A stretch of DNA of 61,555 bases, filler included, from Stramenopiles sp. TOSAG23-6 (lineage: Eukaryota): NCBI GenBank assembly GCA_900128565.1. It is 2 parts of 2 records of this genome, joined end to end, with 100 filler letters (N's around TTAATTAATTAA, not from the genome) between each part and the next. Parts side by side here need not be neighbours in the genome. Positions count along the whole stretch, not along the records: positions 30,842 to 61,555 come from LT635965.1; 1 more part is not named here. One strand, given 5' to 3'. Of the stretch, positions 100-49,007 are shown one piece after another. The notes under the pieces are model-generated. The model was not told the DNA's origin. It searched no databases and was given only the letters and a program-made list of their open reading frames with translations. A program made the position numbers and the translations under genes. Each line of letters starts with the position of its first letter. Position 1 is the first letter of the stretch.

Positions 100-3000
100 A
101 TATTAAATGGACATAACCAAGGCGAGCCTATATGATGGTCGCCTAATGCAGCTGCAACGGATAATGCGGAGCAGGAGTAAAACATATCCACGTATTTTGG
201 AAAAATATTTGAAAAAAAAAATCATTAGGTACAAAATTTCGTACGAAAAAAAATTCGAAGTTGAAAAAAAATAAAACGTACACTTCCAAATGTTTGTTAA
301 TATGATGATGATGGAGTCTTTCATACAAGGTTGTCAGATGACTTAAACTCCGAAATAAAGTATGTATTTTGGAAAAATATTTGAAAAAAAAATCGTTAGG
401 TATGAAATTTCGTATGAAAACAAATTCGATTTTTTTGTTAAAAAAAAAAATAAAAATATTTGAAAAAAAAATCGTTAGGTACAACATTTCGTATGAAAAA
501 AAAATTAAATTAGAAATTCATATAAAACGTACATTATCTTCATCCCATTCTTTACTTCTATTCAGTGTAATATGTTCAACTATAAAACGAAAACGCCGAA
601 AATCTCTAGTCAGAATTTCCAAAACTGTTTTACTACATACATTGCGTTTACAATGTTTTTTGGAAAAATATTTCAAAAAAAATCTAAACACAATTGTTAG
701 GTACAAAATTTTTTTACCAAAAAAAAAAATAAATTTGAAATTGAAAAAAAATAAAACATACATGCTGTTTGCTATTTTGATTGCTACCATCCTTACCATC
801 ACAAAATGAATTAGAATTCTGAGCTTGATGAAGGATTCCATTTGAATTATTTTGTCTACCATTGTCATAATTAAAAAGAGATTTTGGTTCAATTTCTGAA
901 CAAACTGAGCTGATATTATCATAAGTATTCATACTTAATTTTGCAATCATGACTAACGGAAATTGTAATAATGAATCCGATGTATTTTGGAAAAATATTT
1001 CAAAAAAAATCTAAAACATTTTGTTAGGTACAAAATTTCGTACGAAAAAAAAATGTAGACAAAAAATTGAAAAAAAATAAAACATACATGCTCCAGAATC
1101 ACTTATATGAGAATCTTGTACCATTTCTTCCGGCATAAAAATAACTCGCCAATCCGTTAATAGCAAGGTACCAATTTTTAGTTCGTTAGGAGTAGGGTCA
1201 GGACAAGAACCCAATATCGCAAGAATATGTATTGTGAAAAAATATTTTGTGAAAAAAATCGTTAGGTACGGAATTTCGTACGAAAAAAAAACTTGAATTT
1301 GAAATTCATTATGAAATTGTACATGAGGAATAACCAGTTCTGGGAGTTCTGTGGCTTTGGGTGGAAGAGAAAGAACTCTAGCCTGGGAAGCACGCTGATC
1401 TTTTGATGCATCAAGTAGTAACTTCACACGGCGTTTTCTGAAAAAGTCATTACGAAATTTTGATGCATACGTATTGCAAAAAAATATTGCAAAACAAAAA
1501 AATCGTTAGGTACAAAATTTCGTACGAAAAAAATAAATTCGAAATTGAAAAAAAAAACGTACACTGTGTACATATAAAATGATCCCATGCAATGCGAAGC
1601 GACATCAACTCACCGAAATTAAAAAACGTTTTCATTGCAAATTCTGCAACAGCATTTTGTAATTGAGTCCGTCTCGATGTATTTTGGAAAAATATTTCAA
1701 AAAAAAAAAATTAATTTTTGTTAGGTACAAAATTTCGTACGAAAAAAAATTCGATTTTTTGTTTAAAAAAAAAGATAAAACATACATGCTGCTAAAGATC
1801 TTGCACTGAACGGTTGGCGTGATTCCAACATTCCGCCCTCTCCTTTTTTTAATTCCATCTCTTCAATCGCTTTTACAAATATATTTTGGAAAAATATTTC
1901 AAAATTTACTATAAAAAAATTTGTTAGGTACAAAATTTTCAAAAAAAAAAAATCAATTTTTTGTTAAAAAAAAAAAATAAAACATACATAATTCAAAACT
2001 TCCTGGGGAAAAAATGGGTTTTTCTCCTTCAGTATTTTTAGTATTTTTAGTATTTTTAGTATTTTTAGTATTTTTAGATTGTTCACTCACCCACTTGCGA
2101 AGAACCTTTCGAGACCATCGAGATAGTTGGGCACCTGAAAGGTTTACAATTGTATTTTCATTACTAGTTGTAGAAAAATGAAAACCACGTTTTGCCGCTG
2201 CAGCTACGAAACGCCGAGTGACGTCATCAACTGCTTCTAGATTGGATCCAAGTCGAGTTTTTTCCACATTTGCTAAATTTTCAGCTCTTATATCAGCATC
2301 TATTTGAGCAACTTCTGCTTCTTTTTTTGCTGCATCTAACAAATCAATGTGTATTTTGGAAAAATATTTCAAAAAAAATCTTAAAAAATTGTTAGGTACA
2401 AAATTTCCTATGGAAAAATAAATTCAATTTCAAATTTAAAAAAAAAAAAAAAACATACATTTGTTTTTTCTAGATCCAAACACTTTTCAATATATAATTT
2501 ATCACTTGCAGAATCGTTAGGGTTAGGATTTTGGAGGCTAAAAGGAAGCGCCAATCTACCTTCGCTTCGAATATTTCGTATGAATTGTGGAAAAATATTT
2601 CAAAAAAATCTAAAAACATTTGTTAGGTACAAAATTTCCTATGAAAAAATAAATTCGAAATTGAAAAAAAATAAAACATACATTGATTCGTGAACAATAT
2701 TTTCACTCGGAGATATCGAACAAATGGCCTCAACCAAAATTTCTCCAGTCACATATAATGAAAAGAAATATTTCCAAAAATTGATTTTTTTGTTAGGTAC
2801 GAAATGTTCTATGAAAAACAAACTTAAAATTCATGATAAATAAAAACGAATATAATAAAAACGAATATAATAAAAACGAATAGTATATAAAAACTCAAAA
2901 AAAAATCTTTTTTGTTTTTTTTGTTTTTTTTTGTTTTTTTTTGTTTAGGTACGAACTTTCCTATGAAAAAAAATAATAAATGAAAACATACATGCTTTGA

Positions 3001-3804
3001 ACGTTTCGTCCGTTTGCCTAAGGGAAGCCATTCAGAACAGATGGTGCACGCAGATAGTGAACATATACTCATGTATTGTGAAAAAATATTTCAAAAAAAA
3101 ATTAATTTTTGTTAGGTACAAAATTTCGTACGAAAACAAATTCAAAATTGAAAAAAAAATAAAACATACATAGCAGCTTTCCCAAGAAATTTTCCAGTGC
3201 CAATTATAGATCGTTTGTGAAAAACTTCGACTTCAATAAAAGAGTGTAACCCTTGAGACAACGGAAATACAAACATCATGTCCCAACTAGGGTTAATACC
3301 CCCCTTCTTCTCACCCTCAATCTTATGGTCCAGTGTACATGTATTGTGAATTTTTTTTTTATAAAATTTGTTAGGTACAAAATTTCGTACAAAAAAAACA
3401 AAAATTTGAAATTGATAAAACGTACAGGCTTTTCCGCTACCAACACGTACTTCACAATATGGATTTAATGTTCCAACAGTTCCTTTGGAAGTCAAGTTTC
3501 GGGCGCTAGAAATTTTTACAACGATAAAAGGACCAAGGTCTTGCTGTTTGTGCCGAAGTGAAGACAACTCAAAGAACTCCTTTAATCCTCCTTGCGATCT
3601 ATAAAGTCGAACTGCAAGAGCTGGACGCTTTCTACACGATGCACGGGAATTAACTATAGGTACTATGTCTTCTACTGTAGGTGTATCTTGACCACCACCT
3701 TGATTTATTACAGTCTTCTTAGAATGAAAGTCACTATCAGACGAAGTTTCAACAGAAGGACAGGCATTTCGTTTTTTTCGTGAAAATGGGTTCCAACTCT
3801 TCAT
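1..3804 (-). CDS. C2-domain + PH-GRAM protein, probably myotubularin-related; 14 non-canonical introns, 3' end outside the window
   Basis: Removing 14 repeat introns gives one continuous frame from ATG 3804. C2 motifs: VKISSARNL..LNPYCEV..NPSWD..FVF..EVEVF..FLGKA..EWLPL..VTGEI. GRAM-like motifs: GTLLLTDWRVIF, FPLVMIAKL, LEILTRDFRRFRF. Confidence 0.75.
190..281 (-). mobile_element. Introner-type intron, GT-GT
   Basis: GT|GTACGT...CCAAAATAC-GT; 2-nt duplication GT/GT; frame restored (HLEVDMF). Confidence 0.85.
362..532 (-). mobile_element. Dimeric introner-type intron, GT-AT
   Basis: Two family cores with two CCTAAC sites inside one pair of termini; AT/AT duplication. Confidence 0.8.
653..761 (-). 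mobile_element. Introner-type intron, GT-AT
   Basis: AT|GTATGT...CCAAAAAAC-AT; joins SKQH to CKRN in frame. Confidence 0.85.
980..1087 (-). mobile_element. Introner-type intron, GT-AT
   Basis: Consensus termini; restores SGASDSLLQFP. Confidence 0.85.
1227..1322 (-). mobile_element. Introner-type intron, GT-AT (96 nt, stop-free in frame)
   Basis: AT|GTACAA...CACAATAC-AT; family core; reads as a 32-aa F/Y-rich insert in ORF 1011..1427. Confidence 0.8.
1469..1562 (-). mobile_element. Introner-type intron, GT-GT
   Basis: GT|GTACGT...TGCAATAC-GT; restores CTQYASKF. Confidence 0.85.
1677..1785 (-). mobile_element. Introner-type intron, GT-AT
   Basis: Consensus termini; frame restored (LAASRRTQ). 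Confidence 0.85.
1879..1987 (-). mobile_element. Introner-type intron, GT-AT
   Basis: Ends CCAAAATAT-AT; restores SFELFVKA. Confidence 0.85.
2031..2077. repeat. 9-bp coding tandem repeat (KNT)x~5
   Basis: (tagtatttt)n seen directly. Confidence 0.9.
2349..2458 (-). mobile_element. Introner-type intron, GT-AC
   Basis: AT|GTATGT...CCAAAATAC-AC; restores EKTNIDLL. Confidence 0.8.
2580..2681 (-). mobile_element. Introner-type intron, GT-AT
   Basis: Ends CCACAATTC-AT; nearly identical to the PRMT5 intron at 44436. Confidence 0.85.
2753..2991 (-). mobile_element. Long degenerate dimeric introner-type intron, GT-AT
   Basis: Two degenerate cores plus internal short tandem repeats; removal restores C2 end RSKH|VTGEILV. 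Confidence 0.75.
3071..3169 (-). mobile_element. Introner-type intron, GT-AT
   Basis: Consensus termini; restores FLGKAAMSI. Confidence 0.85.
3339..3425 (-). mobile_element. Introner-type intron, GT-AT (87 nt, stop-free in frame)
   Basis: CT|GTACGT...CACAATAC-AT inside the C2 domain. Confidence 0.8.
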
Positions 3805-4194
3805 ATCACTTTCTACTACAAACTACAAACTACAACGTAAAGTAAAGTAAAGTAAAGCAAAAAGGTACAATGGTGTTGTGGAAGTTACAGGTGTGAAAAT
3901 AGTGGTGCATTCCAAAAATGTTTCGTATGGGATGACCTATACCTACAAGTATATTAGTATCGATAAAGCGCGTGAAATGAAAAAATTCGACCTGAAATCC
4001 AAAAAATAGCAAATTTGAAAAAGTCGATCCCGGTAATCCATCGGTTAAAAAAACGGAAATTTGAAATTTCTCTTTTTATACCCTTCGGCATTTGCCTAAA
4101 CGTTTCACATTATTCTGGAACATCGAAATCTACGCCGATCAATAGTGATTTATATGTGCACACGATTCAATATCCTGCATAATATACTTTGGTA

Positions 4195-25267: not shown

Positions 25268-26541
25268 ATGTCAAAGGAACCACACCCGGGCGACTGGGAA
25301 TGTCCCGGGTGTTTACTGGTAGTGTTTGCACATCGTAGTGAATGCATACGTTGTGGTTTTGCCAAGCCAGGTGAGTATACTGTACCAAAGAAGTTACGAG
25401 CAAAGGTATCGAGACCATTGGCCAAGGAGGAAACAATCTCAACGAAATGTAATAATAGTTTAGAAAAAGGAACACAATCCAAGACAATTCACAAACAATC
25501 ACAACGAAGCCGTCACAATAAAAAACGGCGTCTTCGTCAAAGTGCTAGGAAGCCTCGCTTTGCAGCGTTTGCTCGTTGGATAAAGGAAAAGTTTGGTAAT
25601 GTGATGCTCCCAGGTTGTTCTGTCCTTGATGTGGCTGGTGGTTCAGGAGGCCTGTGTTGGGAATTGGTTGCCCCGTTATCAACAATAGATTCAATTAGAT
25701 GTACTGTGATAGATCCAAATCCCGTCCGATTTAGTAGAAGAAAGACTGAAAATCTCATTCGCGCTGCCTTAGTTAGAGTTAATGATTGCAATTTCAGTGT
25801 GACCAAAGTTGAAAATGTCACCAAAATAGACTCTCAGATAAAGGTGGCACTCGACATCAAGTGCTTAGACAAGACAGTCATTGATAAGGCTTCAGATGTT
25901 GTAAGCGATACAGCTGTAAATATTCTTCAAAAACGTGGCGCCCAGCAGCTAAAAACTCTTTTTAATGCAGACTTTTGTTCTGGTCAAAATCCGAATGGGT
26001 CTGAAATCTCGAAAGATTTGTGGCAAAAATGTGTGTTGGTAGTTGGCTTACACCCAGACCAAGCAACGGATTCAATCGTAGACCTCGCACTGAAGCATCA
26101 AAAGCCTTTCGCTGTCGTTCCATGTAGGTTTTTTTATCATTACGTTTCACCTCTCTATTTTTTTTTATACCAAAATTTGTACCTAACAAATTTTTTACAA
26201 AAAAAAAAAAAAATATTTTCCACAAAATATGCTGTGTATTTCCAACACTCTTTAAAAAACGTCGTCTTCCTGGTGAACTAAAAGTACGTACGCGTGAAGA
26301 ATTATGTGAATTTTTGAGGTTAAAATCTCCGACTTATATACATATATGTTTTATTTTTGTTTCAGTTTCGAATTTATTTTTTTCATAAAATTTTGTACCT
26401 AACGATTTTTTTTTGAAATATTTTTCCAAAATACATGTAGATACAATACCTGATTTACCTGGTCCTTGTAATACGGTAGTTTGGTGTTGTGACTATTCTG
26501 TACCAACTTTATCAACTGAAGACAATATTGTAAAAGTATAA
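25268..26541 (+). CDS. RanBP2-type zinc finger + SAM-dependent methyltransferase-like protein (3 exons)
   Basis: GDWECPGC..FAHRSECIRC; VLDVAGGSG; VVGLHPDQATD; splicing restores PFAVVPCCVFP; stop at 26539-26541. Confidence 0.8.
26124..26230 (+). mobile_element. Diverged introner-type intron, GT-AT
   Basis: AT|GTAGGT...TACCTAAC...CACAAAAT-AT; restores VVPCCVFP. Confidence 0.85.
26344..26436 (+). mobile_element. Introner-type intron, AT-AT
   Basis: AT|ATATGT...CCAAAATAC-AT; contains an in-frame TAA; the nearby AG (26439-40) changes frame. Confidence 0.75.
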
Positions 26542-28736: not shown

Positions 28737-28876
28737 GGGGTTCTAATGATAACAATTATAGCCAGCCTTCATTCGCACTAGAAGCATATTCTAGCAAAAA
28801 CTTGCACATATTTTGTATATAATTATAAAAGATCATCAATTTGACTAATATATGACAGTATATTTCAATACTTTTA

Positions 28877-30686
28877 TTACAATTTTCTTATTTCTTTTAC
28901 AACAAGACGAATAAGGCATGCAGAAGCCATTAAACAGCAAAACATCAAAAAGTAAAATACATAATTCCATCCGAAATACGTTGAAATTGCACCAATAGCA
29001 ACGCCTTGGATTGCAGCACCTATTGAACCTGTACCATCTACTATACCAGTTACGGTAGCCATTAATTTACCTTTTGAATAGTTTGAATGTTCATAATCTA
29101 TGTTTGCAGATTCTGAATTGCTCAGAGAGGGATGACAACCGAGATCAGCTGAAACTGCTGTAGTAATGTATTTTGGAAAAATATTTCAATTGGTTTTTCT
29201 TTAGGTACAAAATTTCGTACGAAAAATAAATGTGAAATTGAAAAAAAAAAATAAAACATACATGAGTGCGTAAGGACCATTAATTAATACTCCAACAAAT
29301 AGCATGAGGAATACATTTGGTAGCAACTTATCGCCAATCTCAATAGATATATATCTGTATGTAAGTAATCCAGGGATTGAAAGTATCAGAAATCCAAAAG
29401 AGACACAAGCAGGTTTACGTGTCATATCTCGTAAAAGTCCAGCAAGGATACTCCCAAATATGCCACCAATATCAACAAAAGTACACAGATATCCCGCATG
29501 TACAACGGAAAAACCATTATGCACTAAATAATATGGTGTCCAAAAAATAAAAGTATACGCAACTAATTTAACAAATAACAGACATACAGAAAATTCAATT
29601 ACTCCAGGGATGTGTTTTGGAAAAATATTTCAAAAAAAAAATTTTCAATTTGTTAGGTACAAAATTCCGTACGAAAAAAAAAACGAATTTGAAAAAAAAT
29701 AAAACATACATACACAATGCTTTGTAAAAATTAGACAATGACTGTTTACGCTTTGGGTTTTGTTTCATATTGTCTGCGGATAACACTTGACTTTCATTAT
29801 TTCTGAAAGATGACAAATTTGGATGTACATTATTTGACACATTTTCTGGATTTGTCTGTAAACGAACTTGCCATACCCCGCTTTCTCGAGTGCTTACACT
29901 ATGTAGTTGTCCAGTACTTGACATCAAATCAGAGTCGTTTAATTCTTCTTCATTGAGTCGTTGAGAATACATGTATTTTGGAAAAATATTTCAAAAAAAA
30001 ATCGTTAGGTACAAAATTTATGNAAAAAAANAANTTCGAAACTGAAAAAAAAATAAAACATACATATTCCTAATGCCAGTTTCAGTTGATGATATTATTT
30101 GATCTCCGATATTTTCTTGAGAAATGACATCAAGATCACCTGTTGGAAATCCAAGTTTCGAAGGATATGGAATGATAAAAATAAAGACAGTTATTGTAGA
30201 TATAAACATTACAACACCCGCAATAACAAAAGCCATTGGCCATGTATTTTGGAAAAATATTTTTAAAAAAAGTAGTTAGGTACAAAATTTCGTACGAAAA
30301 AAACCTTCGAATTTGAAAAAAAATAAAACATACATGAAACATTGTTTTTTCCTAATTCACCAGTCCATAGAGGGAAGCTTAAAGCTGCAGTACCCAATAT
30401 ACTCCCAATGATATTACCAGTACTAGTGTGAGCATTCCAAATACCCATGACTAGACCTCTTTCATGTTTTCCATACCAATTACCAACGATTGATACAACA
30501 GCAGGCCAACCTGAAGACTGAAAAATACATGTCCGAGAAAAAATATGTCAATCACAAAAAATATTATTAGAAACGGATACAGAATGTTTTGAAAATAAGA
30601 AAAACAAATGGATTTCAGTCTGAAGAAAGTACCTTGTACTGCATAGATAGAAATAAAGTAAATCAGAGAGTGTTCTTTGAACCAGT
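28877..30686 (-). CDS. SLC37-type (glycerol-3-phosphate/sugar-phosphate exchanger) MFS transporter, 5' part lost in gap
   Basis: After splicing: QGIFQSSGWPAVV, GIWNAHTSTGNIIG, IPGVIEFS, NGPYALITTAVSADLG, ATVTGIVDGTGSIGAA. Confidence 0.92.
29166..29261 (-). mobile_element. Introner-type intron, GT-AT
   Basis: Restores NGPYALITTAVSADLG. Confidence 0.92.
29610..29709 (-). mobile_element. Introner-type intron, GT-AT
   Basis: Ends CCAAAACAC-AT; restores ALCIPGVIEFS. Confidence 0.9.
29971..30063 (-). mobile_element. Introner-type intron, GT-AT
   Basis: Consensus termini; contains n bases; frame restored (RNMYSQ). Confidence 0.8.
30242..30333 (-). mobile_element. Introner-type intron, GT-AT
   Basis: Restores NVSWPMAFV. 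Confidence 0.88.
30529..30632 (-). other. Highly diverged GT-AT intron
   Basis: AG|GTACTT...TTCTAAT...GACATATTTTTTCTCGGACAT|; restores VQGIFQSSGWP. Confidence 0.78.
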
Positions 30687-30741
30687 ATGTATTTTGGAAA
30701 AATATTTCAAAAAAAAATCTTAAAAAATTTGTTAGGTACAA
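30687..30741 (-). mobile_element. Introner-type intron, 3' half only (runs into gap)
   Basis: CCTAAC...CCAAAATAC-AT followed by SLC37 exon. Confidence 0.8.
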
Positions 30742-30841
30742 NNNNNNNNNNNNNNNNNNNNNNNNNNNNNNNNNNNNNNNNNNNNTTAATTAATTAANNN
30801 NNNNNNNNNNNNNNNNNNNNNNNNNNNNNNNNNNNNNNNNN
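30742..30841. other. Assembly gap (100 nt) containing a TTAATTAATTAA six-frame stop linker
   Basis: N-run with ttaattaattaa at 30786-30797. Confidence 0.95.
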
Positions 30842-30901
30842 TTGTTAGGTACAAAATTTCGTACGAAAAAAAATAAATTCGAAATTGAAAAAAAAACATA
30901 C
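30842..30901 (-). mobile_element. Introner-type intron, 5' half only (TERT intron 2)
   Basis: AT|GTATGT donor and core up to the branch site, then gap. Confidence 0.8.
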
Positions 30902-31794
30902 ATTGGAAATGTCCCGTTTTTATTTTTTTTAGTAGAATTAGGTTTTTCGTGTTTCTCATATAATTCCTTATAATTAGGAATGTTTGATTTTATTATTGAG
31001 TTTGCAGGAATACCAGTTAACTGTATAAATGCACCATTAGACATTCTCAATAATAATATCTTGTGTAATAATAAATAATGTACTATAAAAAATACGTCAA
31101 ATGAAAAAATTCGTTAGAAAAAAAATGAAATTGAACAAAATGAAATTGAACAAAATGAAATTGAACAAAATGAAATTGAACAAAATGAAATTGAACAAAA
31201 TGAAATTGAACAAAATGAAATTGAACAAAATATTTGAAATGAATAATGAAAAAATACGTGCATCATTTCGTCGCCAATCCGAGAAAGGAGAAAACACCAT
31301 GCCTTTTGTGTTACAATATTCACTATTGTGTTAGGAAAATGACACATTAGTCCGGGAAGACCTATTATACCATTGTTTTCACCGGGTCGCTGTTTTTGAT
31401 AACCCCGAGTGAGAAGATGCATTTCATGTTGCTTCTGTGACATTTTTGACGATTTGAAAGCACACGCAATGACGCGATTAACTACTTCATTTTGAGTTTG
31501 TTCTGGCGGACGAAACTTTGGCAAAAAACGGCATTCGCGAGCAGTTCCATTCGTTTTAGTCTCGGCAACATAACAGTCACGCAGTAAATCTAGGTATTCT
31601 TTTGGATCATTTGGACGTCGAAGCCGTGACGTTGCCGTTGGATTGCACTTCACATTTGTCGAAGATTTTGTCGAAGACATTGAAACAGAACGCTTACCAG
31701 AACTAATATTCTGTTGTTGTGCTTCATATTCTTCAAGATATTTTCCAAGAGATTGAAAACTACCAAATATATGCCGTGCAACAGAGTTCTGCAT
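30902..31794 (-). CDS. TERT: Telomerase reverse transcriptase, N-terminal TEN domain (remainder lost in gap)
   Basis: Spliced product EVVNRVI..HLLTRGY..HFPNT..AWCFLLSRIGDEMMHYLL..NGAFIQLTGIP follows the TERT TEN/GQ pattern (ELVARVL..NVLAFGF..YLPNT..WGLLLRRVGDD..YQVCGPP). Confidence 0.85.
31078..31257 (-). other. GT-AT intron in TERT carrying a minisatellite
   Basis: AC|GTATTT...TTCTAAC...GACGTATTTTTTATAGTACAT|; the AG 5 nt upstream of the end gives a frameshift and stop. Confidence 0.8.
31126..31230. repeat. 15-bp tandem repeat x7 (tgaaattgaacaaaa)
   Basis: Seven exact units inside the TERT intron. Confidence 0.95.
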
Positions 31795-32080
31795 TGCACA
31801 ATATGAGGAGTTTCTTTCTTTTAGACTGTGTTTGTGACATGTCATATTACCAAAATCAAATCTGAATTTGTCAGGAAAACACGAAATCCAAAATTTAGAG
31901 GAGCTTTGATCGAAAAAATAAATCGTATCTGCGTACACACACACAGTTTTAGGATATTGAAAAATCCCACAACAAATTATTAAATTATTGACATTTTGAA
32001 GTCACTTGTGTTATTGGCATTGTTAGTGTGTTTATATTACAAAGACCTATTTATTAAAGCTATCATTACATTGGTGTGAA

Positions 32081-35000
32081 ATGCTTCCTGATTTGCTGGC
32101 AGGCGCACCACATGATAGTAACTGTATCGTCGCTTCCGAATGCGGTTTGCGCGCTATAATTCGATACGTTGTTTATCTAGACGGGAAACCTGTTGATTGT
32201 GATACGGCACGCGGTGGAGTTGTGTCAGTTTTAGGATTTCTCGATGGTAGTGTATTATATTCCGTGTATGCGCAGGATATACATGTATCACCTCAGCTTT
32301 CCTTATTATTTGACTCTCTTGACAGTGTTGAGAAAGATCTCCACTCAAGTTTAATTCCGTGTTTTCCATTAGTTGGTGAGTCTCTGCGGTCACCTCCATC
32401 GTTTCTATCTACATGTTGGTCACCACCATTACCAAGTGCGAGAGGTGGTGCTTTATGTAGTTTGTTAACGACAGTTACGTCTCTAGGCACTGCTTCAATT
32501 CACAAACCAATATCTGTTTGTGGTGGAATTCGTGGTCTCATTTCCTCCGTTGAAGAACTTGTGAATATTTCGGATATGCTAGGTACATACCTGTCTACAT
32601 CTGTATGGTCGGAAAGAAGTGACAATGTTGTTCATTCGTCAAATAGTGATAATAGTAATAGTAATATCGAGTCAAAGCAAAGTCATGATTCCAACCCTAG
32701 TATTCTATCCTACAAGGAGAAGAGAAAAAGAATTGATTCACTTTCCGTACAATGTGCTTCATGGACTTCAAAATTATATCCTGACTCGGATAAAAAATCT
32801 GTATATACTGGCCAAGTCATTTTAAGTATAGGAAGTAAAGATGGCTGTGTAACTTTGTTTAATTGGTCTGCTTCAGATTTTATGTGTAACCTTAACTCAA
32901 ACACTAATGAGACTATAAAAACAAAATTATTGTCCAATGCTAGAGTAAAACAATTTTCTGCATATACGTGTGGTTGGGTATCAAATATTAGTTTTGGGGG
33001 TATTATTGAAGAATCTTCAACAACAAATACAGTCAAAACTGTGCTTGCCACAGCTTCCTGTCAGGGTAGTATAAAAATTTGGAATATTCTTTTAAAGAAA
33101 AACTCGAGTACTTTTTCTATGTCATGTACACAAAGAGCTGTTGTCACTGTAAATGACTGGCAGACAATAGACTCTTTATCATGGTACAATCCTGTGAATA
33201 ACTGCCCTTCCATTGGTTCATTGCTTTCAATAGTCCAATCAAAGAAACCAAAAATTTGGTCTTTACATGCAGATGCATTTATTTCTCATGATGACTTCCA
33301 GAATGTGGGAAATATAGCTTCAACTGTGTGGTTACAACCTAGATCATTAACTCGCATAACTTCTAAAGCTCTTAGTAGTGAAAACTTTAATTCATCTATG
33401 AGTACAACACTTGGAATATCTCAGTCAAATACGGATGGAATGATGCCTTCATCGTATTTGTTGAACGCAAATTCTAATGACCAGACTTCTAGCGAAAAAC
33501 CAAAGACAAGTGATGATGTTTTCATCAATACTCCCGATCTCATTGAAGACATTTCTAAAGAAGCACGTATATTACTTGAACAAAATAAGAAAAATGATAA
33601 TAATAATAGATTGAACACTTCAAGTAACACTCAACAAACTCGAAATTCATTAGATACACAATTAGGAATGGATCCAAATAAAGCTTTTTTATGTATTGTA
33701 CGAAATATTCAATCAAAGTTTCAAAACAATGTCATGGGAAAATTTAATGGTAACAGTGTTGTTGAGTGGTGGGAGTGTACACATAATAATAATACATATT
33801 CTTTACAACGTAAATCATCTCACCCGTTACTGTCAGAGGATGGACCTGTAGCCGGCTTGTGCCTTTCAACATCTGGAATAAATCAAACTATTGTACATAG
33901 CGCTTCTATTTCTACTTTCGAGCGTCATAAAGTAATGCTATATAGTAGACCTCATATACATATCCGCTTGATGCCTTCCGTAATTTCCAATTCATTTCAA
34001 AACTCTGAATTGGTGATCAATGCATTTGAACACTACGTAAACGGTACAACTCAGCAGCAACAAGAATCAAAGTCTAATTTGCCAAGTTCCATGCCTCTTA
34101 TTCTATGGGATTCTATAGAAATGTTAAACAGAAATTTAAATGTATTATTACAAAAGGAATCTTTGATATCTTCGCGAAAGTTTTGGTGTCTTGAGGAATA
34201 TGAAAATTTCAAAAAAACTATGCTTAATTTGTTACATGAAAGTCCTACATCTACAAGTAGAAATGTATCAACATCTACGAAACGTTTAGGTCATATTCTT
34301 CGATGGATTAAATTATGGAAGTTTATATTAATATGGATGGATCGATCACGAATTCCATTTGATGAATGGCCTCCTCCTCTTCGAAGTATGCTTGGTGCGA
34401 ATAAGCATCGTGAAATTTTGATACAAAGATTGGATAACATTATCAAATGTACTTGGCTCATTCAGGTAATGAATACTATTTTGTCTAATACAAAAAGAGG
34501 CAATTTGTTAAACGATAATGAGAATTCTCTTGCTGAATCGATTGCACATTCAGCATTACACGAAATCAGTCAAGTTTCAAATTTATATTCGAATGTGGAT
34601 AGTAAGAAGGAGAATTCACAATATGTAAAAAAATCGTCAAATTCTCTTGTATCTGTCATGAAAGATTTTGCAGATTTGATTTTGAAACGTTTTTCTTCTT
34701 CAGGGAATAACCACAAAACAATTGATATGGATGTATGTTTTATTTTTTTTCAATTTCGAATTTAGTTTTCGTACGAAATTTTGTGCCTAACGATTTTATT
34801 TTTGAAATATTTTTCCAAAATACATTGGTATATCAATGAAAATGAAGGTTCATGTTGTAATCGTAGTTTATTCACTTTACTGCCGCTAGATGAAAAGGTA
34901 AGAAATAATGGTATGAATCATAATATTTGGTTTCGTTGTCCAAGTTGCTCAAGAGAAGCCAAATGTAACGTAAACACTCAGGAAAAAAACAACAGTAATT

Positions 35001-35092
35001 TTATTCTTACTATTATCAAAAATAATTGTATGAATAATGATGTTTTATTATGTCCCTTTTGTGATGTTGAATTGCAATCAGTCACAAATTGA
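32081..35092 (+). CDS. TFIIIC subunit delta / GTF3C4-like (beta-propeller + C-terminal Cys zinc finger), 2 exons
   Basis: CWSPP..LLTTVTS, WD-like GSKDGCVTLFNW and TASCQGSIKIWN; C-terminal RSLFTLLPL..CPSC..CPFCD. Confidence 0.65.
34733..34825 (+). mobile_element. Introner-type intron, GT-AT
   Basis: Consensus termini; internal in-frame TAG; joins DMD to WYINE. Confidence 0.88.
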
Positions 35093-35222
35093 TGTATTAA
35101 TTGACTATTTTATAGATAAAAGATAACTTGTAAAAATGTTTGTTATGTCACATTTTCAATATAAAAAAAACATTTTTTTATGATTTAAACTTCTTCTTCT
35201 TTGAACATTTTCAGTTGGTATG

Positions 35223-37983
35223 CTACGATGTGATGTTGCTATCGGAATCTCCAAAAGATGTTAGATTTGTTAATCTTGCAACTTCATCGGCCAGTCGCTC
35301 ATTCCAAGCTTCATTACTCGAATTTTGTTCAATATTTTGAACGTCATTTCTTGAATTTTCTGAAAATATTTGATTATTCATTTGATCGTATTGTGAAGGT
35401 AAAGAGGTGTTATATGCAGAAGGAAATTTTTCATCTTGTGTATACGCTACATCATCATAATTATTATAAAAATTCGGTACATTCGGTACATATGAAGATT
35501 TTGCCATGAAATTCATTTGTCCATTCATTTGTCCATTCATTTGTCCATTCATTTGTCCATTCATTTGAGATATTGAAGTTGTACCAACATTAGGACCATT
35601 GACAAATGAATCATTCAGAAAATTACTATTTGGATTATTCAGAAAATTACTATTTGGATTATTCAATCTTTCAGAATTATGAGAAATATTCTGCGAAGTT
35701 GTTTTATCATAACTTGCACTTATTTTTGCGGTAATAACTTCTGCTGGAGTTTTACTCCGATGTAAATTTGAGTTGATATTACTACTACTATCATTTGTTG
35801 TTGTTGCTACATTAGTTAACCACTGTTCCCTAAGTTTACCGAGTTGAATTTTCAATGATAATTCTGCATCATTATCAACACCAACTGTAGATGTTTCAGA
35901 AATATTTGTACCAAATTTCGTACCTAATAAATTCAAGTAATTAGTATTCATATTTGAATTAGTATTCATATTTGAATTAGTATTCATATTTGAAGTAGTA
36001 TTCATATTTGAATATCTATTAGAACCAGGTAACACATTGGAAGCATTTATACTAGAATTTCTTACTTGAGCAGGTGATAAATTCTGCGCGTCATTAGTAA
36101 AAGATTGATTATTACCATTATACTGTTGATTTGAATTAGAATGCATTGAATCATTAAACACTGTATTTGTATAATTTGGGCGATTATTATTATTATTCGA
36201 ATTTGTTGAAGGGTTAGGGTTATTTTTGTGAGACGAAATATCATGAGAAAATCGGCATTTTTTTCCTTTTTTACAGCGACCTTTGGCAAAATAAGTACAC
36301 ATAGGCTTTTGTTTCTTCATATTTGTTTTTGTATATTTTGTATTTCGATTTGAAATATTATTATTATTCATATTATGAGCACCTTGAAAGCCTGCATTGA
36401 GATCGGTTTGTGTATCATGAGGATATACGCCTGATGAATCGTTTTTCCATGATGAAAATTGTTTTTTTGGTGATACAAATCGATTTTTTGGATTAGGGTT
36501 AGGGTTTGGTGATACAAATCGATTTTTTGGATGAGTTGTATTACCTCTACTTGGAGAAAACTGTTGATAATTATTCGTTTTTTGCTTCTGCTTTCTTAAT
36601 TGTTCAGAACGAGTTTTTGCTAGTAAATTTTGTAGATCGTTTTTTGATCCATTTTGTTGTTGTTTCAATCGATTCATTTCTTGTATTTTTTGCATTTGTT
36701 GTCTCTGAGATTCCCTTTCAAGTTTTAGAGATTCTGAGATAGCCAAGCTCAGATCATCTTCCTCCTTTTTACGTCGCGCTATTTCTAATTTATGAAGTCT
36801 CTCACGATCTCGTCTTTGAATTCGCTGTTTTTCGGCTAATTCTTGTTTTTTAAGTGCTTCTTTGAGGTCTTTCTGTTTCTTCTGTTTTTTAAGTGCTTCT
36901 TTGAGGTCTTTCTGTTTCTTCTGTGCAGATAGAACATGTTGTAGTGAACGTTTTACACTCTTTTCTGAGTGATTTGATGCTCGTCTTGCACACTGTGCTG
37001 CATGTTGAGTAGCAAACTTCACTTTTTGCCTTTTTTTCATTTTTCTCTCGTTCTACAAGTTTTAACGATGATGCTAGAGCAGCTTTCATACTCAATTCTT
37101 CTTGTTTTTTAATTCGAATTTCATCTGCACGTGCTTGTTCACGCTTTCTTTCGGCATCTTCCTTTGCTTTTCGTTCTATTTCTCTAGCTTTTTTTTGAGA
37201 TTTTTCAAGATTGATTCGTTTTTGTTCAGCTATTTTCTTTTTTTCTTCATCTTTGGCCTTCGCTTTGGCTGCTTTAGCCAGTTCACGTTCTTTCTTTTTT
37301 TCCATTTGTCGTTTTTTCTTTCTGTCTTTCTTACGCTGTTTCTTAGTTCGTTTATCTTTCTCTTTTTCCTCTTCTCTTAGTAACTCTTCAGCAGCTTTGT
37401 CCGCCGCAGCACTTCTTTCAGCAAAACTTTCTTGAGGTTTTTCACTTTCTTGAGAACTTGCTCTACGGCATCGATTACTTGAATTATTATGGTATGATCT
37501 ACTATAGTAGTATTCGTCTTCTGATTCCTCATCGTCACTAGCAAACATCATTTCTCCCATCATTCCAATAGGAATTGGCATACCGTTCATAAATACAAAA
37601 GGAATCCCTGGAGAACTATCGCGTCCATATTGACCTCTTCTTCTTCGACTACGACGATTACCCTGGTGAAATACGTTACGAAGTTTCATTTCCATCATCA
37701 TTTCGAATATATGAGACATAAACTCTTCCCCATCTATGCAACAGTCATCTTCATCAGTTTCCTCACCCCGCAGTTCTTCAGTCTCTAATCTCTGAAAGGC
37801 TTCACTAAGTGCCTGGAATTTCTCAGTTGCTACATCTGTTGGGTCTGCCGTATTTTTATCAGGATGCAACTGTAACGCTCTAGTACGATATGCTTTTTTT
37901 ACGGCTGAATCAGAATTTGCGCTGTTGGGCGACAACTGTAGTATTTCGAGCGCTTCACTGCGGCTCATGCGATCCGCTGCCAT
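35223..37983 (-). CDS. J-domain protein with coiled coil, CCCH zinc finger and Asn-rich tail; one +1 frameshift near 37035
   Basis: VKKAYRTRALQLHPDKN..FQALSEAF; CTYFAKGRCKKGKKCRFSH; the two ORFs overlap and share the LAxSLKLE coiled-coil repeat. Confidence 0.8.
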
Positions 37984-38552
37984 TTTTATACGGTGACTAT
38001 ATCTAAATCAACTATACTCAATAAAGTTAAAACAGGAGTAGTAACTATGCCTACAAATGATTCACCGACTTAAATTGAATAAAGCCAGATGACCAATGTA
38101 CACTATATGAGTTGTTACAGAATTGGAAAAAATATNCCTGCCACTAGTCACTCACAACGTGTAGAAGTATGATATTGAGTCAGTGCAGCCCGCACACAAT
38201 TGACCGCACATCATTAGGTACGGATATTCGTACCAAATCCAAATTTAAATCACGAAAAATATTAGAAAGAAATGGTAAATAAATTAGTAAATTGGCTTCA
38301 ATCAAGTAAAAAACCTAAAAACCGCTAAAAACCCCCAAAAAAAGTTTAAAAAACCAAAAAAAACAAAAAATTCAAGAAAAAATTCAAGAACAATTTCAAA
38401 CAATTTGCAAAATTTCAAAAATATCATGGTTGATAATTTATAAATATATGATAAACCAATTTAATGAAAAATTGGAATTTTAATTACGAAAAAATGGTAG
38501 GAACAATGTTCAAATGTTTACGAATGTTCAACAACGACTTGCTAACTTTGCT

Positions 38553-39272
38553 CTAACTTTGATTTATGTGATCAAGTACCATTTGTAGCATACGCTGTGC
38601 AAAAACATCAATAGTATCACCTATGGGACCAAAAGTAGCACCCATTTCCTCTCTAACTTGCATTAAATTATGTCGGGTGATTAAGATTTCGTTCTTTGAC
38701 AATTTTTTATCGCCATTTAAGTCAGCAAAGCGAAAAAGAATTTGAGGCCATTTTTCTCTAGTTATATCGTACACAGTGATGTGGTTGTCATTATTTGTAT
38801 CAATTGCATGAAATAATCTTTGGAAACTTCGTTTTAATAGTGAAGGTTGTGAAAGACTTGGTGGTGTCGGTGCTGTCGCTGTTGGTGCTTTTTCATTCTT
38901 TTTCTCGTTTTTCTCGCCTGTTTTCTTCTCGCTCTCGTTTTTATGGTTTTTATCACCTTTAGTTGATGTTTTCTCTGTTTTCTTATCATCTGTTTTCTTT
39001 TCAGTGCTACCTTCGGTTGATTCACCTTTATCTTCATTTGTTCCCACTGCTTTTCTTCTAGCAAACCGAAGTACATGGCCAAAGTCGTCCAACTCTGATA
39101 ATACCTCAGTAGTCGCTACAGTCAACCTGTTTCGTGACCGTGCCACCGTTTCTTTTTGTTTCGGTTTTGTGGTTTTTGCTGTAGATAGAGCAGACAAACG
39201 AAGCCGTGGGCGAGCATATGTAACGCTGGTAATAGTTAAAAGATACAAGGAAAACGTACCAGGGAATCTCAT
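38553..39272 (-). CDS. Secreted EF-hand protein
   Basis: N-terminal hydrophobic signal; DTNNDNHITVYD and DLNGDKKLSKNE loops. Confidence 0.75.
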   Translation of the reverse strand: MRFPGTFSLYLLTITSVTYARPRLRLSALSTAKTTKPKQKETVARSRNRLTVATTEVLSELDDFGHVLRFARRKAVGTNEDKGESTEGSTEKKTDDKKTEKTSTKGDKNHKNESEKKTGEKNEKKNEKAPTATAPTPPSLSQPSLLKRSFQRLFHAIDTNNDNHITVYDITREKWPQILFRFADLNGDKKLSKNEILITRHNLMQVREEMGATFGPIGDTIDVFAQRMLQMVLDHINQS

Positions 39273-41214: not shown

Positions 41215-41431
41215 AATTTGAATAAATATTAAATCGAATTTTAAATTTAAAATTTCGAATTTAAATTTCGAATCTCAAATCGACTAAAAAATACCTTTTT
41301 TTTTTTAGTTTTTTTACCCGTGGACCCAAGAAATACAACTTTTAGCAGTCTTCCTTGAGCATCGCTCTTTCTCAATTTATATTTATTGAATTGATGCTTT
41401 TACGATAAAAAAACGTTAAACGTATTCTCAA

Positions 41432-41737: not shown

Positions 41738-41783
41738 AAAAAATATTAATCAAATAAAGTCTCTTTTAGTACGTAAAAAGTAT

Positions 41784-43760: not shown

Positions 43761-45849
43761 TTAAAGTCCTATCCAATGCGACTGACCATTTACATTATGT
43801 ACACTTGACAATACAGGTGTCACTACTGACCATTCGTACCAAACTTTTGTACTTGAAACACAACGCCACATATGAAGTTCGATTTCTTCACCCTTTTTAC
43901 AATAAAATGGTGTTTTTAAAGGTAAGTACAATGGGAACCAACTAAACATTCCTAAAGAAAAAGTCTTTGGATTAATTGATATAAAAGCATCACAATCCTC
44001 TGGAGATAAAATTTCATAATTTTGTTCAATTGATTTTTTTGATTTTGGTACGGAATTTTGTACTATTTTACTTTTACTTTCTTGTCGTTGGTGTAAAGGA
44101 GATTCAAAATAACCAGCAAAGCCATGAACCATTGTCCCTTCTTTTTGTTTGAATTTTAAAATTTTGTACCTGTTATTATTTATATCACTTATAGGACGTA
44201 AAGGATGATTAAATGTAAAACAAGGTTTTGCTTCAGCTAATTGTTTAAAATTATGCATTTTAACCACATATCCAGTTTCAAATGGTTTTTTTGTTGGATG
44301 GGAATGAGCCCGCACCTTATTCCATAATTTTGATGATGTTATTGGTGCAACAAATGATGTATATTGACAAGGAATACTGACACCCGTATCTTTCAAAAAT
44401 GTTTGAACACCATATAAACATTCAGGTGAAAGCTCATGAATTGTGGAAAAATATTTCAAAAAAATCTAAAAAAATTTGTTAGGTACAAAATTTCTTATGA
44501 AAAAATAAATTCGAAATTGAAAAAAAAGTAAAACATACATTATCACTAAAGGAACCTAGTAATTCACTAATCATTATATCTGCCTTGACAGGTGCGTTCC
44601 AATGACGCATATCACAGGACACAATAACGACGTCTTCACCCCACTGTAAATCATTATGAAGGCTTTTTAATGTAACTACTGCATTTTGATTTTTTTCAAC
44701 TGCATAAATCTTCACTTTTTGGCCGACTTTCTCAGAAGCTCTTAATGCAGCTCTTATGAGTGGACCTCTACCAGCACCAACAACCATGATGATTGGTACT
44801 AATGTACCTGTTCCCTCTCTTATATGACGTTTTTTAAGTTCTTCTAAAGCATGAAAAGTCGCATTTTCATACTCTTTATATTTGACTGGATCACGCTCAA
44901 ATACTTCATACGTCGCCGATTCTAAATTGTCCATTAAAGGCTGTAGTGGAGCTTGCAACACATCATAATACGGTTCCTCAAATAAATCAGCTTCTGTAGG
45001 TACATCCTGAGTCTTACTCATATGATTGATATATAATGCATACACTCCTAATCCGTTATTGTGAAGACTATTACCTCGAATAAGCACCTGAACTTTAGAA
45101 CTCATTAAAGCTCTTAAAATTTTTTGGTGTTGACGAGACAAAGTTGGAAAACCAGAGGAATTTGTCAGAAAAATTTCTGTTGGAATAACTACTGCTTTTA
45201 TAGGTTCAGATAGCCAACGGGTTTGTTCTTCCCATGAAGGTAGATTTTTAGTGAATACTAGACACACAAAAAGACTTGGGGAGTGGTTGCACATACAACG
45301 AAAACGATTCCACGCTTCCCAAGGGTCAGCCGATACGTCAAGAGAAGGTTGGTTGTCATTAGACATATCAGATATATCACTTGTCAATGTATTCCTATAT
45401 GCCAGTGGTACTTCTACCCACATTTGAGCATGTCCAGGTATTGCAACCTTTTGGCTGATACAGCGAGCATAGTTTATACAGTTGTAGTAAAGAGGTGGAA
45501 GGAGAATAGCTGGAACGGATAAGTGTGTGGCCCACGCCAACTCTTGAAATAAAGTTTTCTCAGCAGTGGCACGGACATTATCTGAAACAGAGTCCAAATT
45601 AAACCATCGAGATATTTTACCTACTATCATAGTGGTCCATTGTCCACTAGGCATCACTTTATCCGTTCGTGTAAATGGGCCTTGGCGTCCCGCTGATATG
45701 CCGTTGTCATCCCGATGGAAACGAGGATGCACTAATGGAGCTACAACAAAATCAAAGTGTTCCTTTACGGCATTATTTAAACTTTCCACTAAATCAGGGC
45801 AACAGTGCAGGTCTAATCCAGTGAATGTCCGAGGGCGACTTGCAGTCAT
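43761..45849 (-). CDS. PRMT5: Protein arginine N-methyltransferase 5 (2 exons)
   Basis: LQAPLQPLMDNLESATYEVFERDPVKY, VVGAGRGPL, SELLGSFSDN|ELSPECL, GMFSWFP, KVWYEW. Confidence 0.97.
44436..44538 (-). mobile_element. Introner-type intron, GT-AT
   Basis: Precise removal restores the double-E loop GSFSDNELSPECL. Confidence 0.95.
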
Positions 45850-46063: not shown

Positions 46064-49007
46064 ATGCTTCGAGTTATCCTTCTTTGTATTTGTTTGAAAA
46101 ATGCCAATGGTAATATGAGTATGATGTGGCCTACTGGTGAAGTAAACTTTAATTATGGCAACAACGGGCTCACATCATGGTCATTTTACATTAGAGCTTT
46201 CAATCTTGCCCCAGGTGGTTTTGGGGATGCCGAGTTTGGGTGGGGTCAGTGGTCGAAACCATCATCCACAGATATAAACTTTAATGATGTTTGTGCGATC
46301 AATCCGTTAGGTTTTACTTGTGAGGATGGTGAGAATGGAGGCGCAGGTTGCATCACATATGACCGCGAGTCACTGCCAAATACTCAAACGGCATGTGAAA
46401 AGTCGTGTAAAAATGAAAGTGACGAAGAGAAGAACGGGGTTTCGAACTGCCTAAAGTCCCAATGGACAGACAATTTAAAACAATTTTGTGGTTCAGCTGA
46501 TTATTCTGAACGTGAGAAATGTGAATATTGGATTTGTGGAAATGATAATAAGGGAGGTGTCGTTGGTTCTATTGAGGGAGGAATGGGTTATTGGCCATAT
46601 ACTTTAGAGAAGAAACAGGTAACGTGGATGCTTCCAGGTGCTACAACATCTAATTATGAAATGTTTGCTGGAACATTCCTTGTATGTTTTTTTTCTATTT
46701 CGTGGTTTTGAATGCTTTTTGTGGTGAGGTTCAATTGGACGATTCACTTTTAAAAAAAAAGAATTGTAGAGCAAATTTCATACCTAACAAATTTCGAATT
46801 TGACATATTTTTTCAGAATACTTGCTGATCAAGCACAGCCATGTAATAATTTGGGCGGGGCTGTTCGAATATCAAACCATCTTCTTGTACCAAGTGATAT
46901 GGTGAGCTTTGAAGGTGGTGATGTGATAGATGGATTTTTAGGATATATGCTTGCTGATACACCAATAGGAAAACGTAGTGAAACTGATGATGTGAATAAT
47001 TGGACTATTATCATTGATACTGAAAACTTTTCTGGTCCTGTACTTTACATTTCAAATTGGTTTTGGGAAACACGAGTAAATTGGCATCCTAAATCAAAGA
47101 GTTGGAGTCACCCTAATGCAAAAGTTGGTTACATTGCACGTGGGGCTGAAGGTAAAATTATGGGTAAAATTTCAAATACCATAAAAAACTCAAATGATGA
47201 ATATTGGGCATATACTACACGATGGGGATTACCTAAAGATTCCACAAAAATAAATGAAGAATATACTTCAACAATAATGACTGGGCATTCTCAGTATGAG
47301 GAACCAACTCAAGCAGGTGAGAAAAATTGGATTGAAAACACAATTGAACCAATTCTTAGTGGTAACAAAACAGTAGAAACAATGCCTTCAGATGAAATTT
47401 TAAATAAATCAAAATCTGCTCGAATTCAACCAAAATGTAATCAAGTTGATCGCTCTGGTATTTCAAAGGGTGAAATGCATTTAATACATGAAAACACCAA
47501 AACAACTTTTGTAGGTTTTGGGGTCAATTACGATGATCCATCAGATTCAGATAATAAAACAAATGGATGTCCTATCCGGTATAAGCTTGATAAAACAATA
47601 ATGGATTGTACAACGAGAAGTGATTTATGTCTTGCACCGAAATATCTCACCATCAAAAATACTTCTGGAGAAGCAGAGCATCTTTCCACTGTTAAAAAGG
47701 ATAGTGATGTCCCAACAGATGTGAAGTCACAATTAGAGAAGGAAAATCCGCTTCCAAAAGGTGATTCGCGAGGTCTTCGGAATGCAACAGGGTATTACTA
47801 TGAGCCAGCAAATGAGGAAAAACGATGTTTCAATGATCCTGGTCCATCAGATCAAAAATTATATTGTGTACGAACCAACACAAAAAGTTGGATTGGGTAT
47901 AAATGGTATAAATTTGTTGATCAACCAGAATTAACAAATATTTTTGCATCAATTCCGACACCTGAAGAAAGAAAAAAAGTAAAGGACTTTATGCAAGCTC
48001 GAATTGAAAGACTTCATTCTTATCAAAATTCAGTTAAGGGTGGAGTTCAATGGTTTGATGCACCTGGTCAATTACCTTCGAAAAAAGTAAAGATTGACGA
48101 AAATTTACTAATACAACCACCTGCTGGAATGGAAATTGGATATGTTCCAATTCCTATTTATCAAAAACTTAGAAAAAAGCCGAAAAATTGTGATGTTGTT
48201 ATTGGATCAAAAACAACAGAACCTGATCCATTGCCAAATGATTATTTTTCAAAATATCCTGGACAAACAAGAGATCGAGAAAAATTTACTTGTAAAAATG
48301 ATGCAAACGCAAAGAGTTTGAATCCAGCTAAATTTTATCCCGGTACAATTTTTCCAACTCCACCAAAAGGTACAACAGCTACCGTCCAAGAACGGATTGC
48401 ATATAAATATGAAGTACCTACATTAGGTAGTGATGACGTAATAAAAAAAGATGATACCGGTAGTGATGACGTAATAAAAAAAGATGATACCGGTAGTGAT
48501 GACGTAATAAAAAAAGATGATACCGGTAGTGATGACGTAATAAAAAAAGATGATACCAGTAAAGATGCAGAAAAGGAATTCAATCCAAACGCAAAAATAT
48601 CATTTAGTGCTGACATGACAGTCACATACAATATGGAATATGATCCTAGTGTTAACACTGCAAAACTTAAGAGTGAGATTGTGACTGCAGTTGAAACGGG
48701 AGGTCTACTATCCGTGAAAAATGGTACAAATGGAGTGAATATTTATGATGGTTCTCTCAAAGCAGATTTTACTGTACAGATGACTGCTCCCGAATCAGAG
48801 AAAAGTGAACTTCAGTTGTTGGGAAAAGAAATGGAAGCACTAACAAAAGATCGATTGTTACTGGCGAGGGTCAATAATGGTTTAGTTCCATCTGTTACTG
48901 CACAAAATGTAAGAGTGTCTCCATTGCGTGCTAATGAAACTTCATCGAAAGAATTTAGATCATACGCTAGTTTAAGCTTTTGTATTATTTTAATGTTTAC
49001 CTTCTAA
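46064..49007 (+). CDS. Secreted, possibly GPI-anchored protein of unknown function (2 exons)
   Basis: Signal peptide, W/G/Y-rich body, repeat stalk, hydrophobic C-terminus. Confidence 0.75.
46682..46823 (+). mobile_element. Diverged introner-type intron, GT-TT
   Basis: TT|GTATGT...TACCTAAC...TTCAGAATAC-TT; TT/TT duplication; using the upstream CAG gives TGA after 3 codons. Confidence 0.8.
48426..48557 (+). repeat. 33-bp coding tandem repeat x4 (GSDDVIKKDDT)
   Basis: Four near-exact units. Confidence 0.95.

Follow-up and report, generated by a model that had tools for sequence, protein, structure and literature searches.

Probable transposon-born introns with GT...AT ends in the genome of a MAST-3-like stramenopile

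Introns of the U12 type have the 5' site (A/G)TATCCTT, lack a pyrimidine tract and carry their branch box at 10-20 nucleotides (nt) from the 3' end. Their 3' dinucleotide is flexible, and its position relative to the upstream box matters, which makes them the nearest known case of a ruler. Non-canonical introns of the U2 type were reportedly described in Fritillariidae tunicates by Henriet and colleagues in 2019. According to the portion of Soo et al. (2026, PMC13326754) used here, these introns most commonly end in AT, have Y-A-Y (Y, pyrimidine) as the last triplet and often another such triplet before the 5' site, and are handled by U2-type machinery, with a divergent U2AF proposed as the reader of their ends. 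For the repeated introns of Amoebophrya and the euglenids, the relevant parts of the sources (Farhat et al. 2021, PMC7789003; PMC11282704) report no GT-AG and suggest that pairing joins the ends. Here we analyzed 61,555 nt of the genome of Stramenopiles sp. TOSAG23-6 (assembly GCA_900128565.1; the whole stretch is called the window). A preliminary description had pointed to one intron in the predicted telomerase gene TERT (31078-31257) and a second at 46682-46823, in which an AG shortly before the 3' end seemed to be skipped, and had proposed that the 3' splice site is measured from a TATTTT motif. We found that the window holds a family of repeated intron-forming elements. The most probable reading is a GT...AT family of introners resembling miniature inverted-repeat transposable elements (MITEs), spliced at the non-AG end of the element, in a MAST-3-like stramenopile.

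The repeated unit is ~95-110 nt long. It starts with GTATGTTTTA, has GTACCTAAC in its second half, followed by TTGAAATATTTTT, and ends with CCAAAATACAT. With a profile built from 21 copies, 34 matches at E<1e-3 were obtained in the 61.5-kb window. They comprise 23 full-length copies, three partial or diverged single copies (1322-1227, 3425-3339 and 46682-46823) and a remainder that is composite or cut, namely two composite introns with two profile matches each (532-362 and 2991-2753) and four copies truncated at an end of the window or at a contig join. All 34 matches lie in the sense orientation within genes bearing open reading frames (ORFs); none was antisense or intergenic. The set of complete introns numbered 30, of which 28 came from the profile; the TERT intron and the intron 30632-30529 in a gene for a transporter of the MFS type were added without a significant profile match. 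The first dinucleotide is GT in 28 introns and AT in two. The last dinucleotide is AT in 25, GT in two, and TT, AA and AC in one each, and AG does not occur. The corresponding final triplets are CAT (19 introns), TAT (6), CGT (2), CTT (1), CAA (1) and CAC (1). With 30 introns and not one AG end, the observation is stronger than the preliminary description could know.

The two exon letters preceding the GT are identical with the last two intron letters in 23/30 introns (permutation p 0.0005). Direct repeats other than AT are among them (GT..GT twice, TT..TT once; p 0.00065), and introns whose two repeat copies differ include 21938-21846, 23916-23825 and 30632-30529. Judged from the sequence, a direct repeat of this kind marks the duplication of a 2-nt target, in most cases AT, on either side of an element whose own ends are GTAT...ATAC. 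Two copies, 26344-26436 and 52816-52907, begin with ATATGT and not with GTATGT. In each of them an alternative intron would also be in frame, starting at a GT that lies 4 nt further in and closing on an AG either 4 nt or 1 nt past the usual end; either A at +1 is tolerated or these copies have switched to GT-AG. The otherwise ordinary copy 29971-30063 contains single N letters.

The positions of the 3' ends were examined by reading frame. Cutting from GT to the homologous ...(Y)AT by script brought the longest frame upstream together with the longest one downstream in 21/23 full-length copies. Both misses, 61255-61347 and 1987-1879, resulted from wrong picks of the right-hand frame (near the window end and at a short exon), and both copies are in frame by eye. 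Over the whole set the ORF is regained by frame in 30/30 introns, and in four genes also by homology. For the gene 3830-100, which holds 13 family introns (Table 1), a shift of a single 3' end by 1-2 nt loses at least 43 codons in 12/13 cases; the last intron is uninformative. The same shift test was informative for four of the five family introns of the MFS gene.

Homology fixes several junctions. In the TERT gene a single intron, running from GTATTT at 31257 to ...TATTTTTTATAGTACAT at 31078, fills exactly the range flagged in the preliminary description; its 3' terminus reads ...TTTTTTATAGTACAT. The T-rich tract closes on ATAG, and the reading frame is regained 5 nt later. A full HMMER search with exon 1 gave 28 homologues at E<=1e-3. 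Telomerase_RBD was present in 6/6 of the long homologues tested, and RVT_1, TEN_TERT and TERT_C in 5/6 each; by this comparison exon 1 is identified as the TEN domain of TERT. Searched alone, exon 1 matched no Pfam family at E<=0.001 (best FANCI_HD1 at E=0.055, under its cut-off), gave one unrelated match only in the PDB (E=0.22), scored <=0.84 in the Atlas and had no match in a word-index search of longer proteins. When exons 1 and 2 were aligned together, the junction ...GDEMMH|YLLLH... was free of gaps in 24/28 homologue rows, and the other four were truncated or gapped at this point. Joining the GT donor to the AG at 31084-31083 leads to a stop codon after 11 codons. The preliminary description had stated both the skipping of this AG and the stop behind it, and both points hold. 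The length of 180 nt is due to a tandem repeat (15 nt x 7.3) with the unit AAAATGAAATTGAAC on the plus strand, which is open in the frame of exon 1; each unit also contains a donor-like TGTTCA site.

The 3' terminus of the intron 46682-46823 reads ...TTGACATATTTTTTCAGAATACTT. The junction ...YEMFAGTFL|ADQAQPC... shows no gap in 25/25 aligned homologues (35-46% identity); therefore the AG 7 nt upstream of the end is not a productive acceptor, again as the preliminary description had it. The two-exon gene itself (46034-49007) matched no Pfam family. Its homologues are proteins from Myxococcota metagenome bins and eukaryotic transcriptomes, a mixture that may stem from gene transfer or from eukaryotic contigs placed in the wrong bins. 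In the PRMT5 gene, exon 1 aligns through N and exon 2 from the next residue, E, of solved chains (N443/E444 in the numbering of 4gqb). Use of the AG 3 nt downstream of the intron end would remove this residue, which is aligned with human Glu444 and is presumably one of the two catalytic glutamates of the double-E loop. In the MFS gene ATT TTT CAG encodes the residues IFQ, whose counterparts in solved transporters of the SLC37 type are LFQ/LVQ, so that TTTTTCAG, ending 11 nt past the intron, is coding sequence. In PRMT5, TERT and the 46-49-kb gene the alignments exclude the nearby AGs as acceptors. Masking of AGs by RNA structure was also considered and rejected: none of four 3' regions folded locally better than shuffles (z -0.76 to +0.54), and no stable fold conceals the AGs.

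These results bear directly on an ordinary GT-AG explanation, in which the AGs are used together with other donors, or downstream AGs are used, and the frames are misled by assembly errors or pseudogenes. The assembly does contain frameshifts at A/T runs. The large gene 5071-25093 has five frame breaks at such runs (~7190, 10170, 14300, 18600 and 19450, minus strand) with no intron signals, and another long ORF changes frame in the same way at 37023; such frame changes at A/T homopolymers are probably indel errors of the assembly. The two ATATGT copies, each with an in-frame GT(+4)...AG alternative, also fit this explanation, as does the public PRMT5 model P0001 of the 89%-identical relative: it reads ...SDN-LSPEC..., without the Glu that follows directly on the site of the 44436-44538 intron, as if the AG 3 nt downstream had been used. 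P0001 further lacks three short stretches that form a continuous ORF in the PRMT5 gene of the window, and its gaps look like forced GT-AG annotation around introners. Against the use of ordinary acceptors stand the AG counts: an AG within 12 nt downstream of the end occurs in 13/30 introns and is in frame in only four, and 17/30 have none. In addition, the junctions of PRMT5, TERT and the 46.7-kb gene are set by their homologues, the downstream AG in PRMT5 would cost the Glu aligned with Glu444, and the 13-intron gene is open over 732/735 codons only with the family ends. We therefore regard conventional GT-AG splicing of these introns as highly improbable.

The distances within the introns agree with what had been counted before on fewer copies. 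From TATTT(T/C) to the end there are 18 nt in 26 introns and 17 nt in three (26124-26230, TERT and MFS); the motif is absent from one. More variable, as previously noted, is the interval that separates the A of CTAA(C/T/A) from the end; it measures 32-45 nt and is bimodal because one subfamily has an extra stretch of ~9 nt. In 9/30 introns an AG occurs after the CTAAY box (+8) and before the 3' end. Six of the nine contain TTTTTTTAG ~13 nt past the A of CTAAC; in the others the AG lies at -5, -7 and -19. The motif TTGACRTATTTTT with up to two mismatches occurs 43 times in the window versus 16.6 expected. This regularity is not due to chance, yet the copies are homologous.

The preliminary description explained the constant distance by a factor or small nuclear RNA that binds (GA)xxTATTTTT and sets the cut 17-18 nt downstream regardless of the letters found there. 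Several observations speak for such a ruler. All 29 introns with the box keep to 18 nt (26) or 17 nt (3); the AGs at -5, -7 and -19 fall within the measured interval and yet are passed over; unusual ends (CGT twice, CTT, CAA and CAC) lie at the same position; and the last two letters, being target-derived in the 23/30 introns with direct repeats, are not a signal encoded by the element. All three old introns (TERT, 46.7 kb and MFS) retain the 14-nt box TTGAC(A/G)TATTTTTT unchanged, despite drift in the 5-7 nt that separate it from the end. However, the copies are homologous, and equal spacing is expected from an inherited 3' arm; therefore the family alone cannot show a ruler, and common descent from one element explains the constant 18 nt. 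The informative copies contradict the ruler mildly. Intron 3425-3339, in which TATAAAAAAAAAA, an A-run, stands in place of the T-box, still ends in frame at the same place. All three 17-nt introns end at the homologous terminal letters and not by count. In the composite intron 532-362 the box is present twice, yet the frame fits at the outer end only. A check for a small RNA complementary to the box returned only the opposite strand of the element copies (22/22 matches in the window), and the window contains no Rfam family and no tRNA; for a complementary RNA locus this is weak evidence, since only 61 kb were covered. What is supported of the earlier proposal is the passing over of AGs and, in one sense, a fixed position of the 3' end, with the last two letters copying the target and odd ends falling in the same place; measurement from the box is not supported. 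A motif-anchored ruler is neither needed nor demonstrated, and we consider it unlikely.

The box could instead contain the true branch point, with the A in TTGA(C/A) and not in CTAAC, and the second step of splicing occurring ~19-20 nt downstream as in minor-type introns. TTGAC is kept in all three old introns and fits the yUnAy branch consensus. The unused AG of TTTTTTTAG in six young copies, ~13 nt past the A of CTAAC, would be expected if the branch lay downstream of it, and U12-type introns are known to tolerate different 3' dinucleotides under a rule of distance. Young copies, however, read TTGAAAT, a poorer branch box, and CTAAY is conserved equally in the old introns. The 3425-3339 intron works by frame without the box, and the 5' site is GTATGT and not the ATCC box of the minor type. 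Such a branch-distance mechanism appears quite unlikely.

The 2-nt repeat permits a further reading, in which the same introns are placed two letters leftward as AT-AC-like introns (|AT GTATG...ATAC|) and the pairing of A(+1) with C(-1) known from AT-AC introns would explain the absent AG. The mRNA is the same for both placements in 23/30 introns, and after the shift AC would be the end of most copies. In this placement, however, the 5' dinucleotide becomes variable (AT, GT, TT, GA, AC, AG, CT, TA), compared with GT in 28/30 otherwise, AC is reached at the 3' end in only about two thirds of the introns, and GTATGT is a textbook 5' site. The shifted placement is thus very unlikely.

The preferred reading, a MITE-like introner family with GT...AT ends, can be put as a sequence of steps. 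An element of ~95-110 nt would invade the genes of an AT-rich, gene-dense marine protist. It would supply the 5' splice site GTATGT, the branch box CTAAC and the T-rich tract TATTTTT, and, having short inverted ends GTAT...ATAC, would duplicate a 2-nt target, mostly AT, upon insertion. The RNA would have to lose the element together with one copy of the duplication for the message to be restored; the intron would then extend from GT to ...ATAC plus AT, with a 3' end that lacks AG, and the 3' cut would fall two target-derived letters beyond the element. The 18 nt from TATTTT to the end would be the element's own 3' arm, passed on to every copy. The TERT, 46.7-kb and MFS introns would represent older copies, in which drift of the arm made or left a nearby AG while the old end still keeps the protein intact. 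As a reading of the sequence, AG-independent 3' cleavage at the element end, combined with the duplication of a 2-nt target, has good support from the frames and from homology. Removal presumably takes place at the RNA level by the spliceosome, and the 3'-site recognition of this lineage would accept Y-A-Y/AT ends. By analogy with Fritillaria, an altered U2AF-type reader of the tract and the terminal triplet is one possible route, and pairing of the terminal ACAU with AUGU at +3..+6 of the 5' site might help.

Pairing between the intron ends was assessed on the element copies. RNAalifold predicted no pairs for a consensus hairpin, and at most nine AU-rich pairs can be formed. In the terminal 9-pair helix 88% of the cells are paired, which on most measures is no better than in shuffles. 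If only four pairs are assumed, between +3..+6 and the last four letters, C-G replaces U-A in two copies; pairing of the ends serves as a lead only. The copies 281-190 and 1562-1469 share three linked changes (GT before the donor, a GTACGT donor and an ...ACGT end), which preserve the 2-nt direct repeat and the possible +4/-2 base pair; the changes may go back to one subfamily event.

A broader alternative is a lineage-wide re-coding of the 3' signal, in which AG is no longer needed or read, essentially all introns end in ...Y-A-T and the cut is positioned from a conserved TTGA(C/A)xTATTTTT box, through a factor bound to the branch or tract, together with the terminal triplet. We regard it as doubtful. 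If true, protists would have evolved, independently and protist-wide, an equivalent of the spliceosome of Fritillaria, in which distance has a real part in the choice of the 3' site.

The following points weigh against the introner interpretation. No RNA joints were found at 31078-31257, 34733-34825, 44436-44538 or 46682-46823 in four seawater metatranscriptome runs with short contigs; the comparison covered 30860-50859 (20 kb), and the junctions are neither confirmed nor refuted by it. Owing to the homopolymer frameshifts of the assembly, the frame arguments bear some risk. The inverted ends amount to only 4-9 AU-rich pairs with none predicted by RNAalifold, and compensation at +4/-2 is limited to two copies. 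The TERT intron (profile E=8, a weak match) and the MFS intron (no match) belong to the family by resemblance only, and on that resemblance the former is taken as an old relative. The terminal letters vary (CGT, CTT, CAA, CAC) at a fixed position, which a purely sequence-read 3' site does not readily account for. Finally, the intact TTGAC(A/G)TATTTTTT box hints at something beyond mere inheritance; as it is retained in three old, diverged introns, the box probably matters, and an ordinary role as branch or pyrimidine tract accounts for its conservation equally well.

Among the described systems, the Fritillariidae introns are similar in several respects. As far as the cited text goes, both sets are introns of likely MITE origin without an AG end, with AT as the commonest 3' dinucleotide and a U-rich tract upstream of it. 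The last triplet is Y-A-Y in 26/30 introns here (CAT 19, TAT 6, CAC 1), and a triplet of this type precedes the 5' site in 17/30 (cat 10, tat 6, cac 1; NAT in 22/30). In contrast to F. borealis, which in that text has mostly AG/AC and AG/AT introns, the 5' dinucleotide in the window is GT in 28/30. The host is a stramenopile protist and not an animal, one young family dominates, and the introns are known here from DNA sequence alone. Like the introners of Micromonas and Aureococcus, as outlined in parts of PMC11282704 and PMC12130899, the members of the family are short elements that resemble DNA transposons and are non-autonomous, with target duplications and putative inverted ends; they lie sense in genes, carry splice signals and would be removed with one duplication copy. 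Those introners have canonical splice sites according to these passages, whereas 0/30 introns end in AG here; the target duplication is 2 nt, compared with the 3 nt given for Micromonas. In the section of Gozashti et al. (2025, PMC12130899) on filtering, introner families with mainly unfamiliar splice sites are dropped unless transcripts confirm them, so that such a survey would overlook a GT...AT family if the genome is unannotated. Amoebophrya (PMC7789003) and euglenids (PMC11282704) likewise have repeated introns that lack GT-AG and are bordered by direct repeats; the terminal inverted repeats described there have putative counterparts here. Unlike these, for which the cited portions give inverted repeats of 8-20 nt and variable 5' ends, the family has ~4-9 weak AU pairs and a canonical 5' site and branch box. 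It also differs from U12-type introns by its 5' GTATGT or GTACGT, by CTAAY at 32-45 nt from the end and by the presence of a T-rich tract. The family is new; the class to which it belongs, transposon-born and non-canonically spliced introns, is known.

Table 1. Positions of the introns, intron signals and intron-bearing genes discussed in the text (numbering of the window).
Feature	Position	Strand	Details
Intron in predicted TERT TEN-domain exon	31078..31257	-	180 nt, GTATTT...TACAT; sequence and junction alignment to TERT homologues
5' splice site GTATTT of TERT intron	31252..31257	-	exon 1 ends ...ATG CAC in frame
Perfect tandem repeat within TERT intron	31122..31231	-	15 nt x 7.3
CTAAC branch-like box, TERT intron	31113..31117	-	A lies 36 nt from the 3' end
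TTGACGTATTTTT box, TERT intron (motif of the preliminary description)	31088..31100	-	TATTTT starts at 31094, 17 nt from the end
Skipped AG (TTTTTTATAG), TERT intron	31083..31084	-	5 nt before the frame-restoring end
Second AG-skipping intron	46682..46823	+	142 nt, GTATGT...TCAGAATACTT; diverged family copy, profile E=2.9e-5
Skipped AG (TTTTTTCAG) of second intron	46815..46816	+	7 nt before the intron end
Young family copy in PRMT5	44436..44538	-	AGs at -30 and +3 of the end, neither a possible acceptor
Family copy without TATTTT box	3339..3425	-	ends ...ATACAT in frame
Gene with 13 family introns	100..3830	-	all 13 removed at GT...[family end]: 732/735 codons open
MFS gene with 5 family introns	28850..30687	-	ORF 441 aa spliced, 142 aa unspliced
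Old family-like intron, MFS (SLC37-like) transporter gene	30529..30632	-	ends ...TTGACATATTTTTTCTCGGACAT; no profile match, same architecture by eye

The assignment of the host follows from the PRMT5 exon, for which the best match was a EukProt protein with 89% identity whose label we read as a MAST-3 single-cell assembly; the next matches reached <=52%. The sequencing runs that contain parts of the window are seawater metatranscriptomes. In these seawater RNA data the bins with element copies (34195-34861 and 44200-44866) had a summed contig depth of 1300-3500, compared with 0-6 in neighboring exons. The element sequence is thus highly abundant in these samples; the depth fits many genomic copies in RNA or DNA and is no proof of splicing. 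Listed RNA joints that link different element copies were rejected as repeat artefacts. At position 37023 one base is absent in the RNA contigs of three runs. For further copies, 119 stretches from a pattern scan of metagenomes were compared with the element profile (nhmmer --max, E<=0.1); none matched, and the stretches are chance matches. A scan of viral contigs for the element pattern gave 0 matches. The literature search returned no paper combining 'MAST-3' and 'introner' and none describing such introns in MAST-3. In the MAST single-cell genome paper introns occur only in the methods, and its main text makes no statement on splice sites; the words intron and splice are absent from the main text of the Incisomonas paper. 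The supplements of both could hold splice-site tables.

At 30742-30842 two N runs flank TTAATTAATTAA, which we take to be a six-frame-stop linker of the conventional kind. Two contigs, both of which break off within a copy of the element, are joined at this site, and for this reason only the first two exons of the TERT gene are present. The MFS transporter gene beyond the join is unrelated to TERT and lies on the same strand. The very large minus-strand gene at 5071-25093 encodes PAN domains and several shorter coding repeats, and a 159-nt x 3 tandem repeat lies within it at 24456-24946.

If RNA confirms the proposed junctions, this would be the third independent lineage with transposon-born introns cut at non-AG ends, after a tunicate and a parasitic dinoflagellate, and the host would be an abundant uncultured grazer of the ocean. 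As the 5' site and the branch box are fully canonical, the 3' step would then be isolated as the changed part of splicing. Gene callers restricted to GT-AG will mis-predict proteins in such genomes, as illustrated by the PRMT5 of the relative that lacks its Glu. The family also makes the ruler testable, since thousands of copies with natural indels should exist across the genome.

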